Below, piece by piece: positions 15,456-52,639 of a DNA stretch of 64,000 nucleotides. The DNA comes from Escherichia coli O157 typing phage 13. How positions within the stretch are numbered: the stretch's first letter is position 1; each line of letters begins with the position of its first letter. The translations under genes and the position numbers were made by a program. The stretch lies in the sequence record KP869111; one strand, given 5' to 3'. Below the pieces are notes generated by a model that worked only from the letters and a program-made list of their open reading frames with translations, had not been told where the DNA came from and did no database searches.

Positions 15456-15715
15456 TTAAAATATTCTCGTAGTTGGTCAAAGCCACCGATCGAAGTTCCA
15501 TCAGGAGCAAACACTTGAGGCATAGTCAATCCAACTTGTGATTCACGTCCAAGCTTAACCAGAAGCTCAGCAATTTTCTCATCATCAAAAACACCTTTTT
15601 CTGGCATAACGTTAATGAATTCGAATGGTTGTTTCTTAACAGTCAGCAATCGTTTCGCATTATCACAATAAATGCATTTATGAATAGTAGAGTCATACCC
15701 GTACACTTTAAACAT
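15452..15715 (-). CDS. nrdC: Thioredoxin/glutaredoxin NrdC
   Basis: ATG at 15715 preceded by AAAGGAAAA gives MFKVYGYDSTIHKCIYCDNAKRLL (CxxC motif), matching recalled T4 NrdC (87 aa). Confidence 0.85.
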   Translation of the reverse strand: MFKVYGYDSTIHKCIYCDNAKRLLTVKKQPFEFINVMPEKGVFDDEKIAELLVKLGRESQVGLTMPQVFAPDGTSIGGFDQLREYFK

Positions 15716-16121
15716 TATTTTTCCTTTCATCGATTAAATATGCAACGCCAAATACAATACATGTAATAAAACCTGTGATACAGATAGAAACCAACAACAC
15801 TGTACCAAAGAACCAAATCAGGTTATCTTTAGTAGTTTGTTTTATATCCATCTCACGAATTTCTATAGCTATAGTATCACCTTTATTCAGAAGCGTATAA
15901 AACGACGGTGATACATGCCTGTCAAAAACTCGTCCTTGCTCATCTTTATAGACTGCAATAAATTCTAATTTAGAATATTTTCCTGTAGATTGACCTGAGA
16001 TTAATTCCACTACCTCCACAGGAATTACTTTAGTTTCCATGTAAGTATTCTGACTGTTCCAAATGAATGGAATAATAGCAAAAACTAAAGCTGCGATAAA
16101 ACAACGAAGGCTATATCTCAT
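15708..16121 (-). CDS. Hypothetical membrane protein (N- and C-terminal transmembrane segments)
   Basis: 137 aa; hydrophobic N-terminus CFIAALVFAIIPFIW and C-terminal LIWFFGTVLLVSICITGFITCIVFGVAYLI. Confidence 0.5.
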   Translation of the reverse strand: MRYSLRCFIAALVFAIIPFIWNSQNTYMETKVIPVEVVELISGQSTGKYSKLEFIAVYKDEQGRVFDRHVSPSFYTLLNKGDTIAIEIREMDIKQTTKDNLIWFFGTVLLVSICITGFITCIVFGVAYLIDERKNNV

Positions 16122-16426
16122 TATAATGTTCTCTCAAATTTGTGGAAGCATTTACGGCATTTCAATTTCAAGTTATCACTGGTCCAGTTAACCAGTTGGA
16201 CTTGGATAGTTCCACATTCCGGACATGGATGTTTTGCTGCCGATTTGGCAGCATTTTCACGTCGTTCAACCATTTTCATGATTTCGTTCCATGCTGGAGG
16301 AACGAACTCTTCTTCACCGTGGATTTTATCTCGCTGAACAAATTCAATCTTTGAACTATCGTCAATAAACTTAACCAAGCGGTGATTAGTGTTCATATCA
16401 ATATCCTCTAAAAGACGTAGTTTCAT
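16121..16426 (-). CDS. Hypothetical zinc-ribbon protein
   Basis: 101 aa; CPECG...CRKC four-cysteine motif at the C-terminus. Confidence 0.5.
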   Translation of the reverse strand: MKLRLLEDIDMNTNHRLVKFIDDSSKIEFVQRDKIHGEEEFVPPAWNEIMKMVERRENAAKSAAKHPCPECGTIQVQLVNWTSDNLKLKCRKCFHKFERTL

Positions 16427-17370
16427 TATAACACCTCAATGGCATTTCGTAAACCATCCGCTTTCGCATTCAGAGCTTTTAACGATTTAGTCTGTTCTTT
16501 AATCTGGGCTTCGACTTCTTTCAGACGAGATTTGAGATATTCGCGTTCTTCGGCCATGATATCGACCTTTTCTGCTTTAGGTTCTTTAATAGGCTTAAAC
16601 ACATTAGGGTTCTTCAGTTTAATTTTAATTCGAGAACTGAATAACATTGAACCGTTATCTTCGGTTTCGTCGAACATTTCAACAACATCCATAGTCTGTA
16701 ACATCATGCGAAGTTTATAAGACAGAGAACGAATGGTTTTGTTGCGCTTATTAATTTCTTCGGCTTTCATGGTACCGAGATTACGTGAGTAATAATAAGG
16801 AACCTGGATATCAATTGATAACGATGCGTTACCATTACCAGTTGGTTTGAATACTGCAGTAACCCAATCTTTAACATGAACTTTATTTGTACGACCATCG
16901 CCGCCTGTGAATAATTTACGTGAATGTTTAAAAAGCATATTCACTTGGTTATTGAATTCACAAGCAAATTTATCAGCAAATTTAGTTTCAGGAATGGTGG
17001 AGAACCAATCAGCTAAATGAGTCTTTTTAACATCATTAACAATAGTGAATTCAACCAAATCGGTTTTAGATGTCACAGATTTAATAAAGCTCGGTTTCAT
17101 AAAGTTTTTAATGTTATCACGAGCCACAGTAGAAGATAATAAACGAGAACGTTTGAACCATTGAAGCAACGTCCCTAATGAATGAGAATATGCATTTTGA
17201 GTATCTTTACAGATATGATTTTCTTGGCCTGTGTATGTACCAAAATCGCGAAGAATACCACTTACTACATCTCGGTGTGGAACATCAAATCCTAATGAAC
17301 CAGAAGCACGTTGGGCATGAACGTTAGCGATAAGACCTGCAAAGTATTCAATGTAATGTGAACGTGTCAT
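16426..17370 (-). CDS. Hypothetical protein with C-terminal coiled coil (tandem set member 1)
   Basis: 314 aa; ATG with AGGAAAA Shine-Dalgarno; C-terminal heptad-like segment EEREYLKSRLKEVEAQIKEQTKSLKALNAKADGLRNAIEVL; own early promoter upstream. Confidence 0.6.
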   Translation of the reverse strand: MTRSHYIEYFAGLIANVHAQRASGSLGFDVPHRDVVSGILRDFGTYTGQENHICKDTQNAYSHSLGTLLQWFKRSRLLSSTVARDNIKNFMKPSFIKSVTSKTDLVEFTIVNDVKKTHLADWFSTIPETKFADKFACEFNNQVNMLFKHSRKLFTGGDGRTNKVHVKDWVTAVFKPTGNGNASLSIDIQVPYYYSRNLGTMKAEEINKRNKTIRSLSYKLRMMLQTMDVVEMFDETEDNGSMLFSSRIKIKLKNPNVFKPIKEPKAEKVDIMAEEREYLKSRLKEVEAQIKEQTKSLKALNAKADGLRNAIEVL

Positions 17371-17398
17371 AATATTTTCCTCTCGTTAAGATAGATTC

Positions 17399-17428
17399 AT
17401 TATACTCCAACCATCCTTGGTTGTAAAC
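17399..17428 (-). promoter_or_regulatory. T4-type early promoter inside a repeated cassette
   Basis: Minus strand GTTTAC (17428-17423), 18-nt spacer, TATAAT (17404-17399); 26-nt block TATACTCCAACCATCCTTGGTTGTA repeated at 18422-18447. Confidence 0.6.
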
Positions 17429-17432
17429 TATT

Positions 17433-18392
17433 TTATGATTTTAACGCATTCATTGCGTTAAAAAGTTTAGAATACTGCAACTGGAGATTCGTTACAACAC
17501 TTTGAGCATCACGAAGCTTAGCTTGTGCTTTGTCAAGTTCAACAGACAGTTGGTCCATAGTGGCCTTGATTTGATTGTAATGGTAATCTTCGGCCGGAAG
17601 AAGGTCATTAGAAACATTTAGTTTTACTGCAGACAGTTTGCACACATTTGGCAAACCTTTAAACATTGATTTACCCGAAGTAGAATAAGCACTTAGGACT
17701 TCGGCCTGTTCAATTGGGGTCCCAGTAAGCGATGCTTCAAACAATGCATTTTCCTTTTTAAGATTTTGATAATATTCGGAGTCTTTGTGCCACCATGGCG
17801 CAGGAACCTTTTTACCAATAGATACACGAGCCTGGATAGCGATATGGCCCTTATTCTTGATAAGGTCGATAATATTAAGCTCACGAGAATAAATCGCTTT
17901 AATCTGGTGGATATTATCACCTAAAACTTCCAACGCTTGGTGGAATACACGAGCGACATTATCATTCTTAGGTTTATACGTAAGAGTGAACTCATTCTCA
18001 CTGATAACCATGATTTCCAACTTATCGTAAGTATATTTCAAATGTTTCATGTTAATTGCTTGAGGACGAATACGAGAAGCAATGGCCATCAGATTGTTAA
18101 GGTTATTCCGGAACTGCTTAGCGAAATATTGTCCTTCACCGCCAATACAAAAATTACGAAGTTTCTGTTTGGCCAATAAACGGCTGAACTCACCATTTTT
18201 AATGAACTCTTTAACGGGTGTGTTAGTAACGCATTCAAATTGAGTAAACTTACGAGAAGTAATCCCATAATATGAACAGATTTCCTCAATCTCTTCAGGA
18301 GTCTTTACAGGCATACGGATAGGATTAGGTCCTGGAGTATATGCGTTCGAGGTAAATTCTTTGATAAGTTCTCTACGTGTAATAAAAGCCAT
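17433..18392 (-). CDS. Hypothetical protein with C-terminal coiled coil (tandem set member 2)
   Basis: 319 aa; GAGGAA Shine-Dalgarno; C-terminal coiled coil MDQLSVELDKAQAKLRDAQSVVTNLQLQYSKLFNAMNALKS. Confidence 0.6.
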   Translation of the reverse strand: MAFITRRELIKEFTSNAYTPGPNPIRMPVKTPEEIEEICSYYGITSRKFTQFECVTNTPVKEFIKNGEFSRLLAKQKLRNFCIGGEGQYFAKQFRNNLNNLMAIASRIRPQAINMKHLKYTYDKLEIMVISENEFTLTYKPKNDNVARVFHQALEVLGDNIHQIKAIYSRELNIIDLIKNKGHIAIQARVSIGKKVPAPWWHKDSEYYQNLKKENALFEASLTGTPIEQAEVLSAYSTSGKSMFKGLPNVCKLSAVKLNVSNDLLPAEDYHYNQIKATMDQLSVELDKAQAKLRDAQSVVTNLQLQYSKLFNAMNALKS

Positions 18393-18419
18393 TTTATATT
18401 CCTCATGTTGAAAAATTTA

Positions 18420-18448
18420 TTATACTCCAACCATCCTTGGTTGTACAT
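18420..18448 (-). promoter_or_regulatory. Early promoter-like cassette (repeat of 17399-17428)
   Basis: TATAAT at 18425-18420 and TGTACA 17 nt upstream; 25 of 26 nt identical to the cassette at 17401-17426. Confidence 0.5.
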
Positions 18449-19443
18449 CATTCCTTAAGAAGTTTTACTACCTGAATAAGATTAGCTCGTTCTGTTTTAT
18501 TTTTACCGTTTAAGCCTGCTAATCGTGAGATTTCATCGTCAGTCTGTTGAATAGTTACATTAAGTTCGTTAATCAAAGCTTCAAAGTATTTGATTTGCTC
18601 AGCATGTTTTGATTCAAATTTCTGAACCGGAATAACGTCTTGGTTCAGTTCATCAATAAGGTCTTTAAGAGCATCTTCTTGGTTGATATCATATTCAACT
18701 TCTTTTATTTCTTCAACGAGCTCGTCTTTATATCTAACGTCTTTTAGTCCTGGAGCTGGTCCTGAAATCTCTTCTTTAAGAGTACAAACATACCCAATAC
18801 GGTATCCAACGCCGTCTCGCTTGATATCAACTTCGTCGATAAATCCACAATGTTTAAGTCCAGAGCCGATTATGTCAAAATATCCTTGACGTCGTCCTTC
18901 AAACGTTACACGAACTACTAAGACGGTTTTGCCACCGACCTTTTGAAGCTCACATTTATAAAAGTTTGTTGAACCTGAATAACATGGATGAGTTTTAAAG
19001 TTCATCTGACGATCTAGGCCCATTTGTAAACGTGCTGTTACGGCCATAAAACGTGTTTGGTTCTCGTTAAGATGAGCAACAATCCATTTCAAAGGCATTT
19101 TACCCTGTTCACGGCCGAACAAATCAGTACGTCCTAGATTACGCAGGATGTTGTTAGAGTTAATCATCGACAGAACGTTAAGTTTATTCAGCGCGCTGAA
19201 GATTCCATCAGCCATTGATTTTCCATAACCTTTACACGCTTTAATAAGTGCTCGCGGCAGATTAGTATAGATTTCAGACGGCATATGAAAATCAAATTTA
19301 CTAGTCAGTAATTGATGAACTTGGATAGCAATTTGCTCATAATTAAGTGCTCTGCGATCGTTATGGTCTTTAAACCATACTTTAATCTGTGAAGCACATA
19401 AACCGTTAATTTCATGTTTTACCGCATCAGATGTAATGCTCAT
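18448..19443 (-). CDS. Hypothetical protein with C-terminal coiled coil (tandem set member 3)
   Basis: 331 aa; GAGGAA Shine-Dalgarno; C-terminal coiled coil KYFEALINELNVTIQQTDDEISRLAGLNGKNKTERANLIQVVKLLKE. Confidence 0.6.
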   Translation of the reverse strand: MSITSDAVKHEINGLCASQIKVWFKDHNDRRALNYEQIAIQVHQLLTSKFDFHMPSEIYTNLPRALIKACKGYGKSMADGIFSALNKLNVLSMINSNNILRNLGRTDLFGREQGKMPLKWIVAHLNENQTRFMAVTARLQMGLDRQMNFKTHPCYSGSTNFYKCELQKVGGKTVLVVRVTFEGRRQGYFDIIGSGLKHCGFIDEVDIKRDGVGYRIGYVCTLKEEISGPAPGLKDVRYKDELVEEIKEVEYDINQEDALKDLIDELNQDVIPVQKFESKHAEQIKYFEALINELNVTIQQTDDEISRLAGLNGKNKTERANLIQVVKLLKE

Positions 19444-19505
19444 AACTATTTCCTCGGATTGAATTGGAACTCAAAACCATTATAACCCGTCCTTGGGTAA
19501 AGCGT

Positions 19506-20033
19506 TTATGCGTGAACCGACTTTAAACGTTCTTCAAATTTCCGAAGAGTACTAATACGTTCTGCTTTCTGTTTTGTATAGTTTGCAATACGTTCTGAAG
19601 TGAGAGCGTATCGTTCGTTTACTGTTTCTTTCATGAAGTCAGGGATTTCACGAGAAGCTTTAATTTCATCAAACTTATCGAGTACTGCCTGGTCTTCAGC
19701 AATTAAATTTTCGTACATCTCGATATCTTTCTTGATGAAGTCGATATCTTCCTGGGTTACTTTGGATAAACGAGATGCTTTATCCTTTTTGTACTGCTCG
19801 TTAGTTTCACGAGACCAGAATAATGTACGTTTTTTGTTAGTGTTTTTGTAGACTTCCACAATTCCAACTGAATCGATGATAACAATCCAATTCCAGCGAG
19901 ATTTGAAAATCTGACCTCCGTCCACGGTAATCTCGTTACCATAAGCAATGTCATTAAAGAACTTACTTTGTGCTTCGGATTTAAATTTACCGTCGTTATA
20001 ATTTACCAGGTTGAAAATATCTTTAGCGTTCAT
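19506..20033 (-). CDS. Hypothetical protein with C-terminal coiled coil
   Basis: 175 aa; GGAGGT Shine-Dalgarno; charged helical C-terminal half. Confidence 0.55.
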   Translation of the reverse strand: MNAKDIFNLVNYNDGKFKSEAQSKFFNDIAYGNEITVDGGQIFKSRWNWIVIIDSVGIVEVYKNTNKKRTLFWSRETNEQYKKDKASRLSKVTQEDIDFIKKDIEMYENLIAEDQAVLDKFDEIKASREIPDFMKETVNERYALTSERIANYTKQKAERISTLRKFEERLKSVHA

Positions 20034-20060
20034 GTTTTACCTCCAGTAGTTGATAGGTCT

Positions 20061-20089
20061 ATAATAACATAACCATAGACCTTGTAAAC
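20061..20089 (-). promoter_or_regulatory. T4-type early promoter with flanking inverted repeat
   Basis: Minus strand GTTTAC (20089-20084), 17-nt spacer, TATTAT (20066-20061); inverted repeat AGGTCTAT/ATAGACCT at 20055-20062 and 20075-20082. Confidence 0.5.
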
Positions 20090-20091
20090 AA

Positions 20092-20379
20092 CTAAAAGAA
20101 ACTTTTTTCGGTATTTTTTCCACTGAACCAAACAGACTTCGGGATTTTTTGTAATTTTTCAGATTTAAGTTTCTCTTCCTGTTCTTTCTTATATACACCC
20201 TTGTCGTACTGGAGCATCTCTATGACATTCTTTTGCAAACGATCTAAGGTAATTAAGGCTTTAGTTTTTCCTTTCAAGGAAGAGTCCTGGCGAACCTCCT
20301 CGCTATATTGCATTGTAGAACTAACCATACGATGAGCATAGAGTTCGACTGCGGCTTTAATTTTTTGCATAAAATCCAT
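20092..20379 (-). CDS. Hypothetical protein
   Basis: 95 aa; strong AAAGAGGA Shine-Dalgarno before ATG at 20379. Confidence 0.5.
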   Translation of the reverse strand: MDFMQKIKAAVELYAHRMVSSTMQYSEEVRQDSSLKGKTKALITLDRLQKNVIEMLQYDKGVYKKEQEEKLKSEKLQKIPKSVWFSGKNTEKSFF

Positions 20380-20517: not shown

Positions 20518-21498
20518 TTATTTCAGTAAAGTAACTTCCGAGATTTCTTCCCAACCATCTTTATCAGTTGAAATAAAATCTGCTACATAAAGAGCCGTAC
20601 GTAATGATACATTGCGAAGACGAGATACGTTAGCCTTCATCCAGGACAATGCTTTATACGTTTCTGCATCCGTCAGACCACGTTTCTGCATCATGTCAGT
20701 AGATAATATTACATCTTCAACTCGAACCATAATCTCTTCATTAGAGTGTACTCCAAGGTCGAGATACACTGAACGAGATACTAAAGCTTGAAGGTGTGGA
20801 GCAAGTTTCGAACCCCGTTCTAACTCTTTATCGATATCAACGTTTGTAATGAAAACGATAGTACCTTCAAACTCAAATTCTTTATCAATACCCTTATCCT
20901 CGAGATAAGATGACGCAGTGCTCCAACAAACTTTGCGTTTATCTCCGGTATCTAATGCTGCTTTAAGAAGGTTCAGGATGTCCATATCTGAGAATACGTC
21001 AACGTCATCGATTAAGAGAACGCTGTCTTCATCACGGTTGAGCCAAAGTTGTTCGTAAAGGCCAATACCAGAGATTTTACCATTAATGCTTTTGTATTTG
21101 ATGAAACCATTATCATTAGCATTATTAAGTGCTTTATCCAGAGAATACGTCTTACCAATACCAGCTGCACCTGAAATAATGAGTGAACGAATTTTGCCAT
21201 CGATAATGCCATTCGTCATCATGTTCATTACTTTAAAGCGTTTGTTGATACGGGTTTTCATATCTTCAGTGCTTTCAACAACTGCAACTGGTGATGTCTC
21301 AACTCCTTCCATTACGATGTCTGATTTGAAGACCCATACTCCACGTTCAGAACCATCAATCATAACGAAAATTTTACCATCACCTAAGTGGGAACATTCA
21401 GGATTAAGCTTTGCCGGGAACCAGGTCTTTGTGGCAACATAAGAACCAGAGATTTCGTTATTACGATAGATACCTTTTTTGATTTGAACGTTGAACAT
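20518..21498 (-). CDS. Putative AAA+/P-loop ATPase with an N-terminal domain of unknown function
   Basis: Track ORF 20518-21519; ATG at 21498 has a GGAGA Shine-Dalgarno; Walker A ISGAAGIGKTYS, Walker B VLLIDDVDVF, sensor-like IVFITN. Confidence 0.6.
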   Translation of the reverse strand: MFNVQIKKGIYRNNEISGSYVATKTWFPAKLNPECSHLGDGKIFVMIDGSERGVWVFKSDIVMEGVETSPVAVVESTEDMKTRINKRFKVMNMMTNGIIDGKIRSLIISGAAGIGKTYSLDKALNNANDNGFIKYKSINGKISGIGLYEQLWLNRDEDSVLLIDDVDVFSDMDILNLLKAALDTGDKRKVCWSTASSYLEDKGIDKEFEFEGTIVFITNVDIDKELERGSKLAPHLQALVSRSVYLDLGVHSNEEIMVRVEDVILSTDMMQKRGLTDAETYKALSWMKANVSRLRNVSLRTALYVADFISTDKDGWEEISEVTLLK

Positions 21499-21584
21499 TT
21501 TATTCTCCAATTTACTCATTTCGTTTCGATAGGTCTATAGTATCATATCCTAAAAGCATGTACACTACTTTTTAAAAATATTTT

Positions 21585-21914: not shown

Positions 21915-22904
21915 TTATTTATAGTAAGAATTATGATTTTCGAGATAGACTTGCTCAAGGAAGTCATCCCAGAAACTCATATCTACTTTTTGTTGCATAC
22001 CGTTCTTAGCGGCTTGTTCTGACGCATGTTCAACTTGGTCAACGATATCTTCTAGGAATTCTTGCACAGTTTTAAACGTATGTTTACCAAGCTTAACATC
22101 GAGAATAAATGGAGCATCCTGAAGTGGGTAAACCAGGTCGCCGGTTTTGTAAATTTCCAATAATTGAAGTCCACCACGACATGCATGACTCAATGCTTTC
22201 CAGTCAATACCTTCGTTAGCTTCTGCCTTACGAGCACGTTCGCCATAGTTCTCTTCCAGTTTAACCAGGATGGCATTGAACTCTTTATTGGTTAACGTAT
22301 CTTGGAATTTACGGTCTAACAGATTATAGAATGTTTGCTTACCTGTTTTCTCGTTTTCGGTTTCAACCCATGAAGCAAATTCACCTACAGGCAGAACATT
22401 CTTCATATGTGATAAACGAATTACTGCACCATTATCAAAGTATTGTCCCCATTCATTAGAACGTTTAAGGGCTTGACGAAGAACAGCCAGTCGAGAACCC
22501 TTGACACCGTATTTAGAAGCTTGCTTACGGACATACCCTAAATAAGATTTCATGTTAGTGGTATAGAAACGAGACCTGTTATCTTGAATATACTTCCATA
22601 CATCAGGCAAATCAGATTTAACTACTAGACTTTGTGGAGTGTGAAGCATATCTAATGCGACGGTTTCACCATCTGCAGCTAGTTTAAAGAAATATTTGAG
22701 ACTATATAACTCATGGTCCACGTCGTCTTTTGTGTTCTTAGAAGATGTGTTATTCGTGTTCTTGCTCATGTGTTCTTTAACGTTACCGGTCAAGATATCA
22801 CGAGCATGAGGGACATAAATTTCTTTAAAATCGACGTCAGATTCAGGAGTAGACGTTCCATAAAGGTGGCTACCAAAGTAGCCTTTCATAATTGTTTTCA
22901 TCAT
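21915..22904 (-). CDS. Putative Pol-beta-superfamily nucleotidyltransferase
   Basis: 329 aa; N-terminal GS-x3-GT-x4-SDVD (YFGSHLYGTSTPESDVDF) plus downstream acidic residue (VALDM); start overlaps the stop of the upstream membrane-protein gene (ATGA). Confidence 0.6.
   Translation of the reverse strand: MMKTIMKGYFGSHLYGTSTPESDVDFKEIYVPHARDILTGNVKEHMSKNTNNTSSKNTKDDVDHELYSLKYFFKLAADGETVALDMLHTPQSLVVKSDLPDVWKYIQDNRSRFYTTNMKSYLGYVRKQASKYGVKGSRLAVLRQALKRSNEWGQYFDNGAVIRLSHMKNVLPVGEFASWVETENEKTGKQTFYNLLDRKFQDTLTNKEFNAILVKLEENYGERARKAEANEGIDWKALSHACRGGLQLLEIYKTGDLVYPLQDAPFILDVKLGKHTFKTVQEFLEDIVDQVEHASEQAAKNGMQQKVDMSFWDDFLEQVYLENHNSYYK
21916..21923 (-). promoter_or_regulatory. Late promoter-like TATAAATA upstream of the secreted-protein gene
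   Basis: Exact TATAAATA on the minus strand overlapping the last codons of the nucleotidyltransferase gene, 33 nt upstream of the ATG at 21883. Confidence 0.45.
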
Positions 22905-50987: not shown

Positions 50988-52639
50988 GTAATAACAATAC
51001 ATACCAACACGTTTCAAACGAATCCATTTACGTTGAATTCGACCCTACGGGGTCGAATTTTCCAGATACAGTCACTAATGTCCAAGCCGCATTAGCTGCT
51101 ATTTCTCCTTCAGGTGTTAATGGTGTACCGGAAGCAACAACTACTACACCAGGAATTATTCAAATAGCTACTCCACAAGAAGTTATTGATGGACTAGATA
51201 ATAGTAAAGCTGTTACTCCGGCATCACTGAATGCTCGTCTACAATATCCTAATGCAACCGAAACTCAATATGGCTTAACTCGTTATGCTACTGAAGATGA
51301 AGCAGTAACAGGAACTATTGACGATGCATCAATTACTCCGCTTAAATTGAATCAAAAAATAGACAATGTATTCCAGACAAAAGTGTCAACAGAAGCATCA
51401 AATGGTGTAATTAAAATTTCGACTTCTGCTGCGGCATTAGCCGGTTCTGACGATACGACGGCAATGACTCCGTTAAAAACGCAACAATTGGCAATTAAAC
51501 TTATTTCGCAAATTGCTCCAAATAATAGTGACGCCACTGAATCTATTACCGGTGTTGTTCGTTTGGCTACAGTTGCTCAAGCGCAACAAGGCACCCTGCG
51601 TGAAGGCTATGCAATTTCACCTTATACCTTTATGAATTCAGTAGCATCAGAAACTAATAAAGGTGTCGTTAAACTAGGGACACAGACTGAAGTAAATAGT
51701 AACAACTCTTCAGTTGTAGTGACCGGCGCAACATTAAACGNNNNNNNNNNNNNNNNNNNNNNNNNNNNNNNNNNNNNNNNNNNNNNNNNNNNNNNNNNNN
51801 NNNNNNNNNNNNNNCGTGGGGCTACAACTTCTTTACGTGGAGTTGTTCGTTTAACTACACAAGCTGGTAGCCAATCAGGTGGTGATGGTTCTTCTGCCCT
51901 TGCTTGGAATGCTGATGTTATCCACCAACGAGGCGGACAAACTATTAATGGCACGCTTCGCATTAATAATACGTTGACTGTTGGTTCTGGTGGCGCTAAT
52001 ATAACGGGTAATGTCAATATGACCGGTGGTTATATTCAAGGCAATCGTATTGTGACTCAAAATGAATTAGACCGAATTCTCCCAGTTGGCGCTATTACAA
52101 TGTGGGCTGCAGATAGTTTACCGAGTTCTGACTGGCGCTTCTGTCACGGTGGGACCGTTTCTGCTTCAGAATGTCCGGTATATGCTTCCAGAATTGGGAC
52201 ACGATATGGCGGTAGTTCTTCTAACCCAGGCTTGCCTGATATGCGTGGATTATTTGTTCGCGGCTCAGGTCGTGGCTCTCACTTAACAAATCCAAATGTT
52301 AATGGTAATGACCAGTTTGGTAAGCCTAGATTAGGTGTAGGTTGTACCGGTGGATATGTCGGTGAAGTGCAAAAACAACAGATGTCATATCATAAGCATG
52401 CTGGCGGTTTTGGTGAACATGATGATTCTGGAGCATTCGGTAATACCCGTAGATCAAATTTTGTTGGTACACGTAAAGGACTTGACTGGGATAACCGTTC
52501 ATACTTCACCAATGACGGATATGAAATTGACCCGGCATCACAACGAAATTCCAAATATACATTAAATCGTCCTGAATTAATTGGAAATGAAACACGTCCA
52601 TGGAACATTTCTTTAAACTATATCATTAAGGTAAAATAA
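50984..52639 (+). CDS. 12: Short tail fiber gp12 (interior partly masked by N-run)
   Basis: 551 aa including 74 N (51741-51814); synteny between gp11 and wac; repetitive Gly/Thr-rich fibre sequence. Confidence 0.88.

Follow-up and report, generated by a model that had tools for sequence, protein, structure and literature searches.

Are the three adjacent genes of similar size on the minus strand at 16426-19443 of a 64,000-nt stretch of Escherichia coli O157 typing phage 13 (KP869111; this whole stretch is called the window) unrelated cassettes that were inserted one after another, or parts of a single array? An earlier note, made from the letters of the window, had favoured the former. Its open reading frame (ORF) positions were exact: gene A at 16426-17370 (314 aa), gene B at 17433-18392 (319 aa) and gene C at 18448-19443 (331 aa); the next gene, at 19506-20033, is called D. 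A ribosome-binding site of the GAGGA type precedes the ATG of A, B and C, by 8 nt in each case. Positions 16000-20100 were 100% identical to E. coli O157 typing phages 3 and 6, and 97-98% identical to many other Mosigvirus phages (T4-like, Straboviridae); the window phage is a Mosigvirus. The analysis showed that A, B and C make up a conserved yet dispensable array in the nrdC-mobD hyperplastic region of T-even-type phages.

Identity of the three genes and their order

This region of the window was syntenic with T4 nrdC to nrdC.11. Judged by sequence and family profiles, A, B and C correspond, as Mosigvirus alleles, to T4 nrdC.3, nrdC.5 and nrdC.6; the earlier note had been unable to match any of them to a T4 protein. 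Gene A was assigned as the orthologue of T4 NrdC.3 (58% identity across the full 314 aa by BLASTP). Profile phrog_1435, which also holds both T4 NrdC.3 and T4 NrdC.4, matched residues 1-314 (E = 3.9e-101), and PF26897 was precomputed on every homologue of A. A and the nrdC.2 homologue have one base in common, the last of A and the first of its neighbour, in keeping with the nrdC.3/nrdC.2 overlap of T4. Within A, positions 16907-17229 showed about 90% DNA identity to many Tequatroviruses, whose whole NrdC.3 protein was only 73-76% identical (for records present in both searches); gene A is accordingly read as a recombination mosaic.

Gene B was placed as a divergent member of the NrdC.5 family. 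The Pfam model DUF7235 (PF23882) matched B with 413.7 bits (cut-off 30; E = 6.8e-124; residues 15-318 on profile positions 1-307) and T4 NrdC.5 with 420.6 bits (E = 5.3e-126), and phrog_2351 includes both, while direct comparison by BLASTP gave 25% identity over 308 aa. No mention of DUF7235 was found in the literature. A library-wide HMMER search with the alignment of B returned 2 representatives only, the profile being too shallow to reach T4 NrdC.5 at those E-values.

Gene C was assigned to the NrdC.6 family (phrog_2257 / PF26899). Model phrog_2257 matched residues 1-331 of C (E = 4.4e-127) and, on the same model, T4 NrdC.6 (6.4e-126). BLASTP of T4 NrdC.6 against C gave 37% identity over 139 aa, and tblastn in T4-type phages covered residues 27-330 (92% of C) at 32-33% identity. 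The T4 reference copy of nrdC.6 (NC_000866, about 51996-52119) carries a frameshift some 16 codons ahead of the annotated stop; the +1 frame still encodes the C-terminus conserved in the family (...ISIQQYDDEIFRLSGLSSKAKSEREKLIKIVDLLKS*), inside the sequence annotated as 'intergenic' between nrdC.6 and nrdC.5. In Tequatrovirus F26 the copy is intact, at 295 aa.

Beside the 58%, 25% and 37% identity of A, B and C to their T4 counterparts, EndoVII, NrdC, NrdC.8, NrdC.10 and NrdC.11 were 78-90% identical to T4. The order nrdC.8-nrdC.6-nrdC.5-nrdC.4 (or nrdC.3)-nrdC.2-nrdC was kept in Tequatrovirus (T4 and F26), Mosigvirus (the window), Gaprivervirus (VR26 and MN01), Dhakavirus (JS10 and MX01) and a Yersinia phage (vB_YenM_P8). 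The slot of B, between the nrdC.6 and nrdC.4/nrdC.3 homologues, was the same in T4, VR26, JS10, MN01, MX01, vB_YenM_P8 and F26. The NrdC.3/NrdC.4 family is represented by two genes in T4 (nrdC.3 and nrdC.4) and by one in the window; other genera had NrdC.4 only. In T4, nrdC.1-6 can be removed as one block (PMC9825161). All three genes thus proved to be conserved T4 genes, one of the outcomes that the earlier note had set against its own reading; well characterised they are not, since a phenotype has been published for NrdC.5 alone. Many phage records in GenBank label all the array genes 'thioredoxin', apparently after their nrdC.x names; in the domain library searches no thioredoxin model matched A, B, C or D.

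Kinship of A, B and C

Pairwise BLASTP detected no significant similarity among A, B and C, and to this extent the absence of identity described in the earlier note was borne out. Profile comparison did link A and B. Alignment of the A family with the B family by hhalign gave a probability of 89-93.5% (P from 2e-7 to 2e-6) over 175-282 columns, nearly end to end. With the last 60 residues removed, the probability was still 90.8% (P = 1.2e-6), and therefore the match was not an artefact of the coiled coil. A hidden Markov model (HMM) of the B family placed the ORF of A second among the 142 long ORFs of the window (E = 1.4e-4). The C-terminal 50 residues of A and B aligned in register (P = 4e-4), their N-termini have M(K)TRxxYIxxF in common, and the two proteins were about 20% identical in the alignment. 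On this profile evidence, the A and B families are classed as distant paralogues. Together with the common gene order in four genera, this indicates that the array is old and diverged in place.

The position of C was less clear. In hhalign, C was colinear with the A family (P = 0.13) and with the B family (P = 0.009), neither being significant; full-length, truncated, C-terminal-only and enlarged family profiles likewise gave nothing significant that would link C or D to A and B. What C does share is its size, hypervariable residues 221-260 (as in B) and a terminal motif. This motif, L-x-x-[AVI]-[ILMV]-x-[LVA]-[LI]-K, lies in the terminal helix of all three proteins.

A common layout

B and C are built of three parts: some 220 aa at the N-terminus, then a hypervariable linker of roughly 40 aa, and finally a C-terminal helix that is conserved. 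A is similar overall. Among close relatives, B and C were more than 85-95% identical except for residues 221-260, where identity fell to 0.28-0.43. In B the linker (17613-17732) had an identity of 0.28-0.38, against 0.87-0.99 in the remainder; in C the corresponding values were 0.40-0.43 (18664-18783) and 0.75-0.97. The variable stretches of A were weaker than those of B and C and placed elsewhere, at residues 21-40 and 261-280. Between genera, the C-terminal helix was the best conserved part of each family. In the NrdC.6 family this was the sequence ...ELN(V/I)TIQQxDDEIxRLxGL...LLK(D/E), the best kept part across four genera, which corresponds to the conserved C-terminal helical region of C (residues 281-331; 18451-18603); the C-terminal motif of C was common to VR26, JS10, F26 and the frameshifted T4 copy.

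The earlier note had given all three proteins, and D, a C-terminal coiled coil, the signs of which were clearer in A and B than in C and D. The AlphaFold2 model of A has a single long helix at residues 273-313 with a predicted local distance difference test (pLDDT) score of 68-80, the rest being lower; in the model of B, a helix at 268-318 is the sole part with pLDDT 59-80. The C-terminal heptad helices were accordingly delimited at residues 273-314 of A (16429-16554) and 268-319 of B (17436-17591). By eye, hydrophobic 3-4 spacing was uninterrupted at 279-314 of A (L279...L314) and at 275-317 of B (I275...L317), which amounts to 5-6 unbroken heptads in each. A heptad-contrast statistic, which is a crude comparison with shuffled sequences and not a dedicated coiled-coil predictor, was marginal for A (p = 0.075) and supported B (p = 0.015), and did not rise above shuffles for C (p = 0.45) or D (p = 0.39). 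In all four proteins the best-scoring window was nonetheless the C-terminal tail. In C, heptad spacing at 284-308 was followed by a Gly-containing break and then a short terminal helix. The C-terminus of A aligned end to end with that of the B family, and the C-terminus of T4 NrdC.3 matched the end of the DUF7235 model position for position.

The complete models were built from shallow alignments and had a mean pLDDT of 45.8 for A (25 sequences) and 41.9 for B (7 sequences). They nevertheless presented the same order of elements, namely N-terminal helices, a long helix, a beta hairpin, a helix, a second beta hairpin, the linker and the C-terminal helix, and the secondary-structure elements of the two models correspond along the hhalign alignment. 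Fold searches with these models, at a pLDDT of 42-46, were uninformative: Foldseek of the A and B models against BFVD retrieved only orthologues (fPS-65 NrdC.3, and RB69 NrdC.5 at TM 0.15) and noise. A merged MAFFT alignment of A and B was dropped for modelling, having disagreed with hhalign in the N-terminal and middle regions.

Promoter-hairpin cassettes

Each gene had been credited with its own early promoter, those before A and B being near-identical. The repeat was real and far beyond chance, the two coordinate pairs of the earlier note being one base out of register with each other. It is a 43-nt direct repeat (family D3), found before A at 17390-17432 and before B at 18410-18452, its copies being 86% identical; within it, an exact 27-nt core (17399-17425 = 18419-18445) flanks B exactly. 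Both copies are on the minus strand and read (T/G)TACA ACCAAGGATGGTTGGAG TATAAT with an N17 spacer. Before A, the -35 element TTTACA lies at 17427-17422, the hairpin CAACCA-AGGA-TGGTTG at 17423-17408 and the -10 element TATAAT at 17404-17399; before B, the -35 element TGTACA is at 18447-18442, the hairpin at 18443-18428 and TATAAT at 18424-18419. Scored against the sigma-70 consensus they reached 11/12 and 10/12 respectively, and among all sigma-70-like sites of the 10 kb scanned they came first and fifth. An AT-rich stretch precedes the -35 element before A (AAATCATAAAATAG); before B, the -35 element abuts the stop codon of C and the sequence upstream is coding.

The 6-bp spacer hairpin had a predicted energy of -6.9 kcal/mol in both cassettes (z = -2.3 and -1.9). 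Across nine distinct cassettes, a small sample for which the register was picked by the analyst, 84% of cells were paired, compared with 62% in shuffles (0/500 of which reached the observed value) and 24-41% in slid controls, and 4/7 stem pairs changed on both sides. The AGGA loop (17414-17417 and 18434-18437) and the inner CCA/TGG pairs were invariant across four genera, while the outer pairs covaried. The core CCAAGGATGG occurred exactly twice in the 64 kb, before A and before B, with a one-mismatch copy before C. In T4 the same core precedes nrdC.3, nrdC.7 and, as a variant, nrdC.4; in VR26 and JS10 it precedes nrdC.4 and nrdC.6. Since the longer core is 27/27 identical although A and B are so divergent, the cassettes were homogenised or recently acquired, and not co-duplicated with the genes.

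Promoter-early stem-loop (PeSL) cassettes have been described in T4-type phages (Arbiol et al. 2010, PMC2839356; Comeau et al. 2014, PMC4122927). As the earlier note had proposed, the cassettes before A and B answer to the PeSL description in their predicted features, having a sigma-70-like promoter, a stem-loop in the spacer and a repeated occurrence in a hyperplastic region. In IMG/VR, the pattern CCAAGGATGG-N(0-8)-TATAAT brought up contigs that were for the most part unrelated and matched by chance. A RegB site at the GGAG beside the -10 element (GGAGUAUAAUG), which agreed with 8/11 of the consensus GGAGRAYARAA and would be transcribed only on read-through, was not adopted.

The promoter ahead of C was of another kind. 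A short cassette at 19479-19505 (minus strand) comprises CGCTTTA at 19504-19498, an N13 spacer holding CCAAGGACGG, and TATAAT at 19484-19479; it had no properly spaced -35 element and was absent from the sigma-70 site list of the promoter scan. It was homologous in sequence and position to T4 CCGCTTTATACCAAGGATGGTATAATGG. The start of PnrdC.7, a T4 middle promoter that depends on MotA, has been mapped to 53325, and the -10 element of this T4 sequence sits seven bases upstream of that point. MotA boxes follow the published consensus (a/t)(a/t)(a/t)TGCTTtA and are placed 12±1 bp from the -10 element (PMC2988021). The element before C was conserved at the same place in T4, VR26 and JS10. Going by these layouts, A and B have early-type promoters and C most likely a middle one, so that the claim of three early promoters stood for the first two genes and failed for the third.

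Natural loss of gene B

In the Mosigviruses WFL6982, G2285 and AV109, A and C were adjacent and 1020 bp were missing. A 260-nt junction probe, scored as a contiguous match, showed that B was absent from 21 of 153 related phage records and carried by 132, the B type being found in Mosigvirus only. All 21 records without B kept A and C intact. The isolate series AV109-AV118 included both states, with B present in AV112 and AV117 and missing from AV109, 110, 114, 115, 116 and 118. The junctions were read in WFL6982 and AV109 (n = 2), and both were chimeric: the left flank of the cassette before B was followed by the shared core and then by the right flank of the cassette before A. Recombination between identical cores has therefore removed B in a minority of natural Mosigviruses, and this loss follows the published PeSL mechanism. 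The state without B is secondary, given that the NrdC.5 family fills the slot in every genus examined. The serial insertion of cassettes envisaged in the earlier note was thus supported insofar as B behaves as a module-sized insertion or deletion bounded by the cores; the genes themselves are neither independent nor unrelated. The comparison across relatives that it had suggested found B variable and the gene order kept in four genera.

These junctions provide a clean natural case of gene loss mediated by promoter cassettes, and closely similar Mosigviruses with and without B amount to a natural experiment on what B protects against.

Proposed function and alternative explanations

A T4 deletion mutant fails on strain ECOR17 and on MG1655 carrying ECOR17 Dsr1 (PMC9391042), and plating on Dsr1 cells is recovered once nrdC.5, without any other gene, is expressed (Srikant, Guegler & Laub, eLife 2022, PMC9391042). 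Dsr1 is a SIR2-type defence protein whose TPR sensor domain recognises phage major capsid proteins (2026 preprint, PMC12803255). By analogy with T4 NrdC.5, B is most likely an anti-Dsr1-type inhibitor. B would be made early, from its strong promoter, and would neutralise a Dsr1-type sensor ahead of the late capsid trigger. The mode would most likely be direct binding of the sensor, such as that by which DSAD1, a phage inhibitor, acts on DSR2 (PMC10973363, PMC10981675, PMC11087589). In such a protein the conserved C-terminal coiled coil would provide oligomerisation or avidity, and the fast-evolving N-terminal part and linker would determine target specificity. A, as the paralogue of B, and C, which resembles it in layout, context and evolutionary behaviour, are candidate inhibitors that would most likely be directed at other host factors in like manner; NrdC.3 and NrdC.4 are direct counter-defence candidates because they are paralogues of the NrdC.5 family. 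Taken as a whole, the combination of array identity, cassette-mediated loss and an early B inhibitor of a Dsr1-type sensor was considered the best explanation, and probable rather than assured.

Several observations weigh against this explanation. The divergence of B from T4 NrdC.5, at 25% identity, means that the target may differ, and the published anti-Dsr1 evidence for NrdC.5 is genetic complementation only (PMC9391042). No function for nrdC.3, nrdC.4 or nrdC.6 was found in the literature. B is missing from the 21 related records described above, and so is dispensable on their isolation hosts. Profile comparison does not tie C significantly to A or B (P = 0.009-0.13). Since both models have low confidence scores (pLDDT 42 and 46), sequence profiles and secondary structure are the only basis for the fold and for the proposed common architecture; no relative of solved structure was found, PDB sequence searches with the three family profiles giving nothing below an E-value of 0.1. 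Finally, no catalytic or known domain was detected in A-C (Pfam at E up to 5, PADLOC, NCBIfam); domain library matches were weak, to coiled-coil or unrelated families, and all below cut-offs where these are defined.

Three other explanations were weighed against the same evidence. The view of the earlier note, that the three genes are orphan ORF cassettes, independent and unrelated in origin, which were inserted serially, each bringing its own PeSL, accounts for the PeSL-like cassettes that flank B exactly, for its presence in some close relatives and absence from others, and for the failure of BLASTP to see similarity among the three. It does not account for three families occurring in the same order in four genera, for homology between A and B at the profile level, for the T4 homologues of all three, or for the cassette before C being a conserved middle promoter at the same place in T4, VR26 and JS10. 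Synteny and the homology of A and B largely refute it, and it was judged highly improbable. Another proposal is that the genes are accessories of host takeover or housekeeping, acting on metabolism, the nucleoid or the envelope and unrelated to immunity, the Dsr1 phenotype of T4 NrdC.5 being indirect or specific to T4. This would fit evidence that consists of complementation and not binding, the low identity of B to T4 NrdC.5, the lack of any domain hinting at function, and the fact that B is dispensable in nature. However, nrdC.5 alone restored plating on Dsr1 cells, and the region holds other counter-defence genes, namely gp49.2, whose product inhibits OLD (PMC13096335), and pin, which acts against Lon; fast divergence beside conserved neighbours, combined with presence/absence variation, is moreover typical of arms-race genes. 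This proposal was thought unlikely.

A further alternative is that A, B and C, and perhaps NrdC.8, form one hetero-oligomeric complex held together by their C-terminal helices, and do not act as separate inhibitors. The common terminal helix motif speaks for this, as does the much better conservation of this helix than of the remainder in each family; the genes are also adjacent, albeit with early-type promoters for A and B and a middle-type promoter for C. Yet T4 nrdC.5 suffices alone against Dsr1, the records without B retain intact A and C, the frameshift in the T4 reference removes the conserved C-terminus of NrdC.6, and the composition of the array differs, with NrdC.4 only in other genera and both NrdC.3 and NrdC.4 in T4. 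A complex of this kind was held to be improbable.

The favoured explanation, with B as an early inhibitor of a Dsr1-type sensor, can be extended. NrdC.3/4, NrdC.5 and perhaps NrdC.6 might belong to a single superfamily, still diversifying, whose members inhibit defence sensors by binding them, with the cassettes as joints at which modules are duplicated, swapped or deleted. A fast-evolving recognition part would be matched to sensors (Dsr1 and related TPR-sensor systems, e.g., Avs7) and tethered through the hypervariable linker to a conserved coiled-coil oligomerisation module, while the joints would be the cassettes with their invariant CCA-AGGA-TGG hairpin. If true, the array would be the phage counterpart of a variable immune-receptor locus. 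This extension is speculative and was regarded as rather doubtful.

Earlier publications already cover the gene families, the PeSL mechanism and the anti-Dsr1 phenotype. Four results appear to be new: that the NrdC.3/4 and NrdC.5 families are paralogues at the profile level, that a layout in three parts is shared, that these promoters contain a conserved AGGA hairpin, and that the gene of the NrdC.5 family has been lost naturally, between cassettes, in about 1/7 of Mosigvirus records. Three 'hypothetical proteins' are thereby placed beside the sole member with a known phenotype, T4 NrdC.5 against Dsr1.

Neighbouring genes

Gene D (minus strand, 175 aa) was the orthologue of T4 NrdC.8, with 83% identity and a match to phrog_2274. 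Comparison with the three array families by hhalign (P = 0.1-0.5) demonstrated no relation to A-C. D is preceded by a second class of cassette (family D2; 20052-20108, minus strand), with a -35 element TTTACA at 20088-20083, a -10 element TATTAT at 20066-20061, and an 11-bp hairpin (-13.4 kcal/mol, z = -3.7) that overlaps the -10 element. Another 57-nt copy of this class, 70% identical to the one before D, was located at 21528-21584, before the NrdC.10 homologue. The latter (20518-21519, minus strand) was 78% identical to T4; it has the Walker-A motif GAAGIGKT and weak matches to AAA/STAND-NTPase families below Pfam cut-offs. The NrdC.11 homologue at 21915-22904 (minus strand) was also 78% identical, and T4 NrdC.11 matches the RlaP nucleotidyltransferase family. 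On the other side of the array, an ORF of 137 aa at 15708-16121 (minus strand) occupies the slot of T4 nrdC.1 and was instead 41% identical to T4 NrdC.7, a predicted membrane protein whose gene is located between nrdC.6 and nrdC.8 in T4; the slot of this gene therefore differs between genera.

Comparison with known systems

The T4 counterparts resemble the window genes to different degrees. Gene A and T4 nrdC.3 agree in full-length identity and in adjoining nrdC.2, with the difference that T4 has a second gene of the family. B is like T4 NrdC.5 in size, slot and a C-terminal helix ending KLxNAxNALK. It lacks an insertion of about 30 aa that T4 NrdC.5 has, and whereas T4 nrdC.5 abuts nrdC.6 without a promoter cassette, B has its own strong predicted early promoter. 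C is about 35-50 aa longer than other members of the NrdC.6 family, owing to its linker.

Among promoters, the closest parallel to the element before C is T4 PnrdC.7 (Hinton 2010, PMC2988021), which likewise lies just downstream of the nrdC.8 homologue and has an embedded CCAAGGAYGG. In both, the core of the MotA box begins with C and not T; the element before C has a 13-nt spacer instead of 12. The window counterpart directly precedes the nrdC.6 homologue, the nrdC.7 homologue having moved to another slot.

With PeSLs, the cassettes before A and B have in common a sigma-70-like promoter (TTTACW-N17-TAYWAT, as for the PST/T4 pair), a stem-loop between the -35 and -10 elements, and repetition in a hyperplastic region, where the flanked gene varies among close relatives and leaves a chimeric junction. 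They differ in that the PeSL of RB49/phi1 is a terminator of a G-run and a C-run, while the hairpin here is of 5-7 bp with an invariant AGGA loop and no T-run after it, and in that genes flanked by PeSLs elsewhere are orphan ORFs, while those described here are members of conserved families.

The nearest functional analogue of the activity proposed for B is DSAD1, a phage protein that disables a SIR2-type NADase equipped with a sensor for a late structural protein. The target of DSAD1 is DSR2 and not Dsr1, and its host group is Bacillus; B is likened to it by function, and no homology between the two is claimed.

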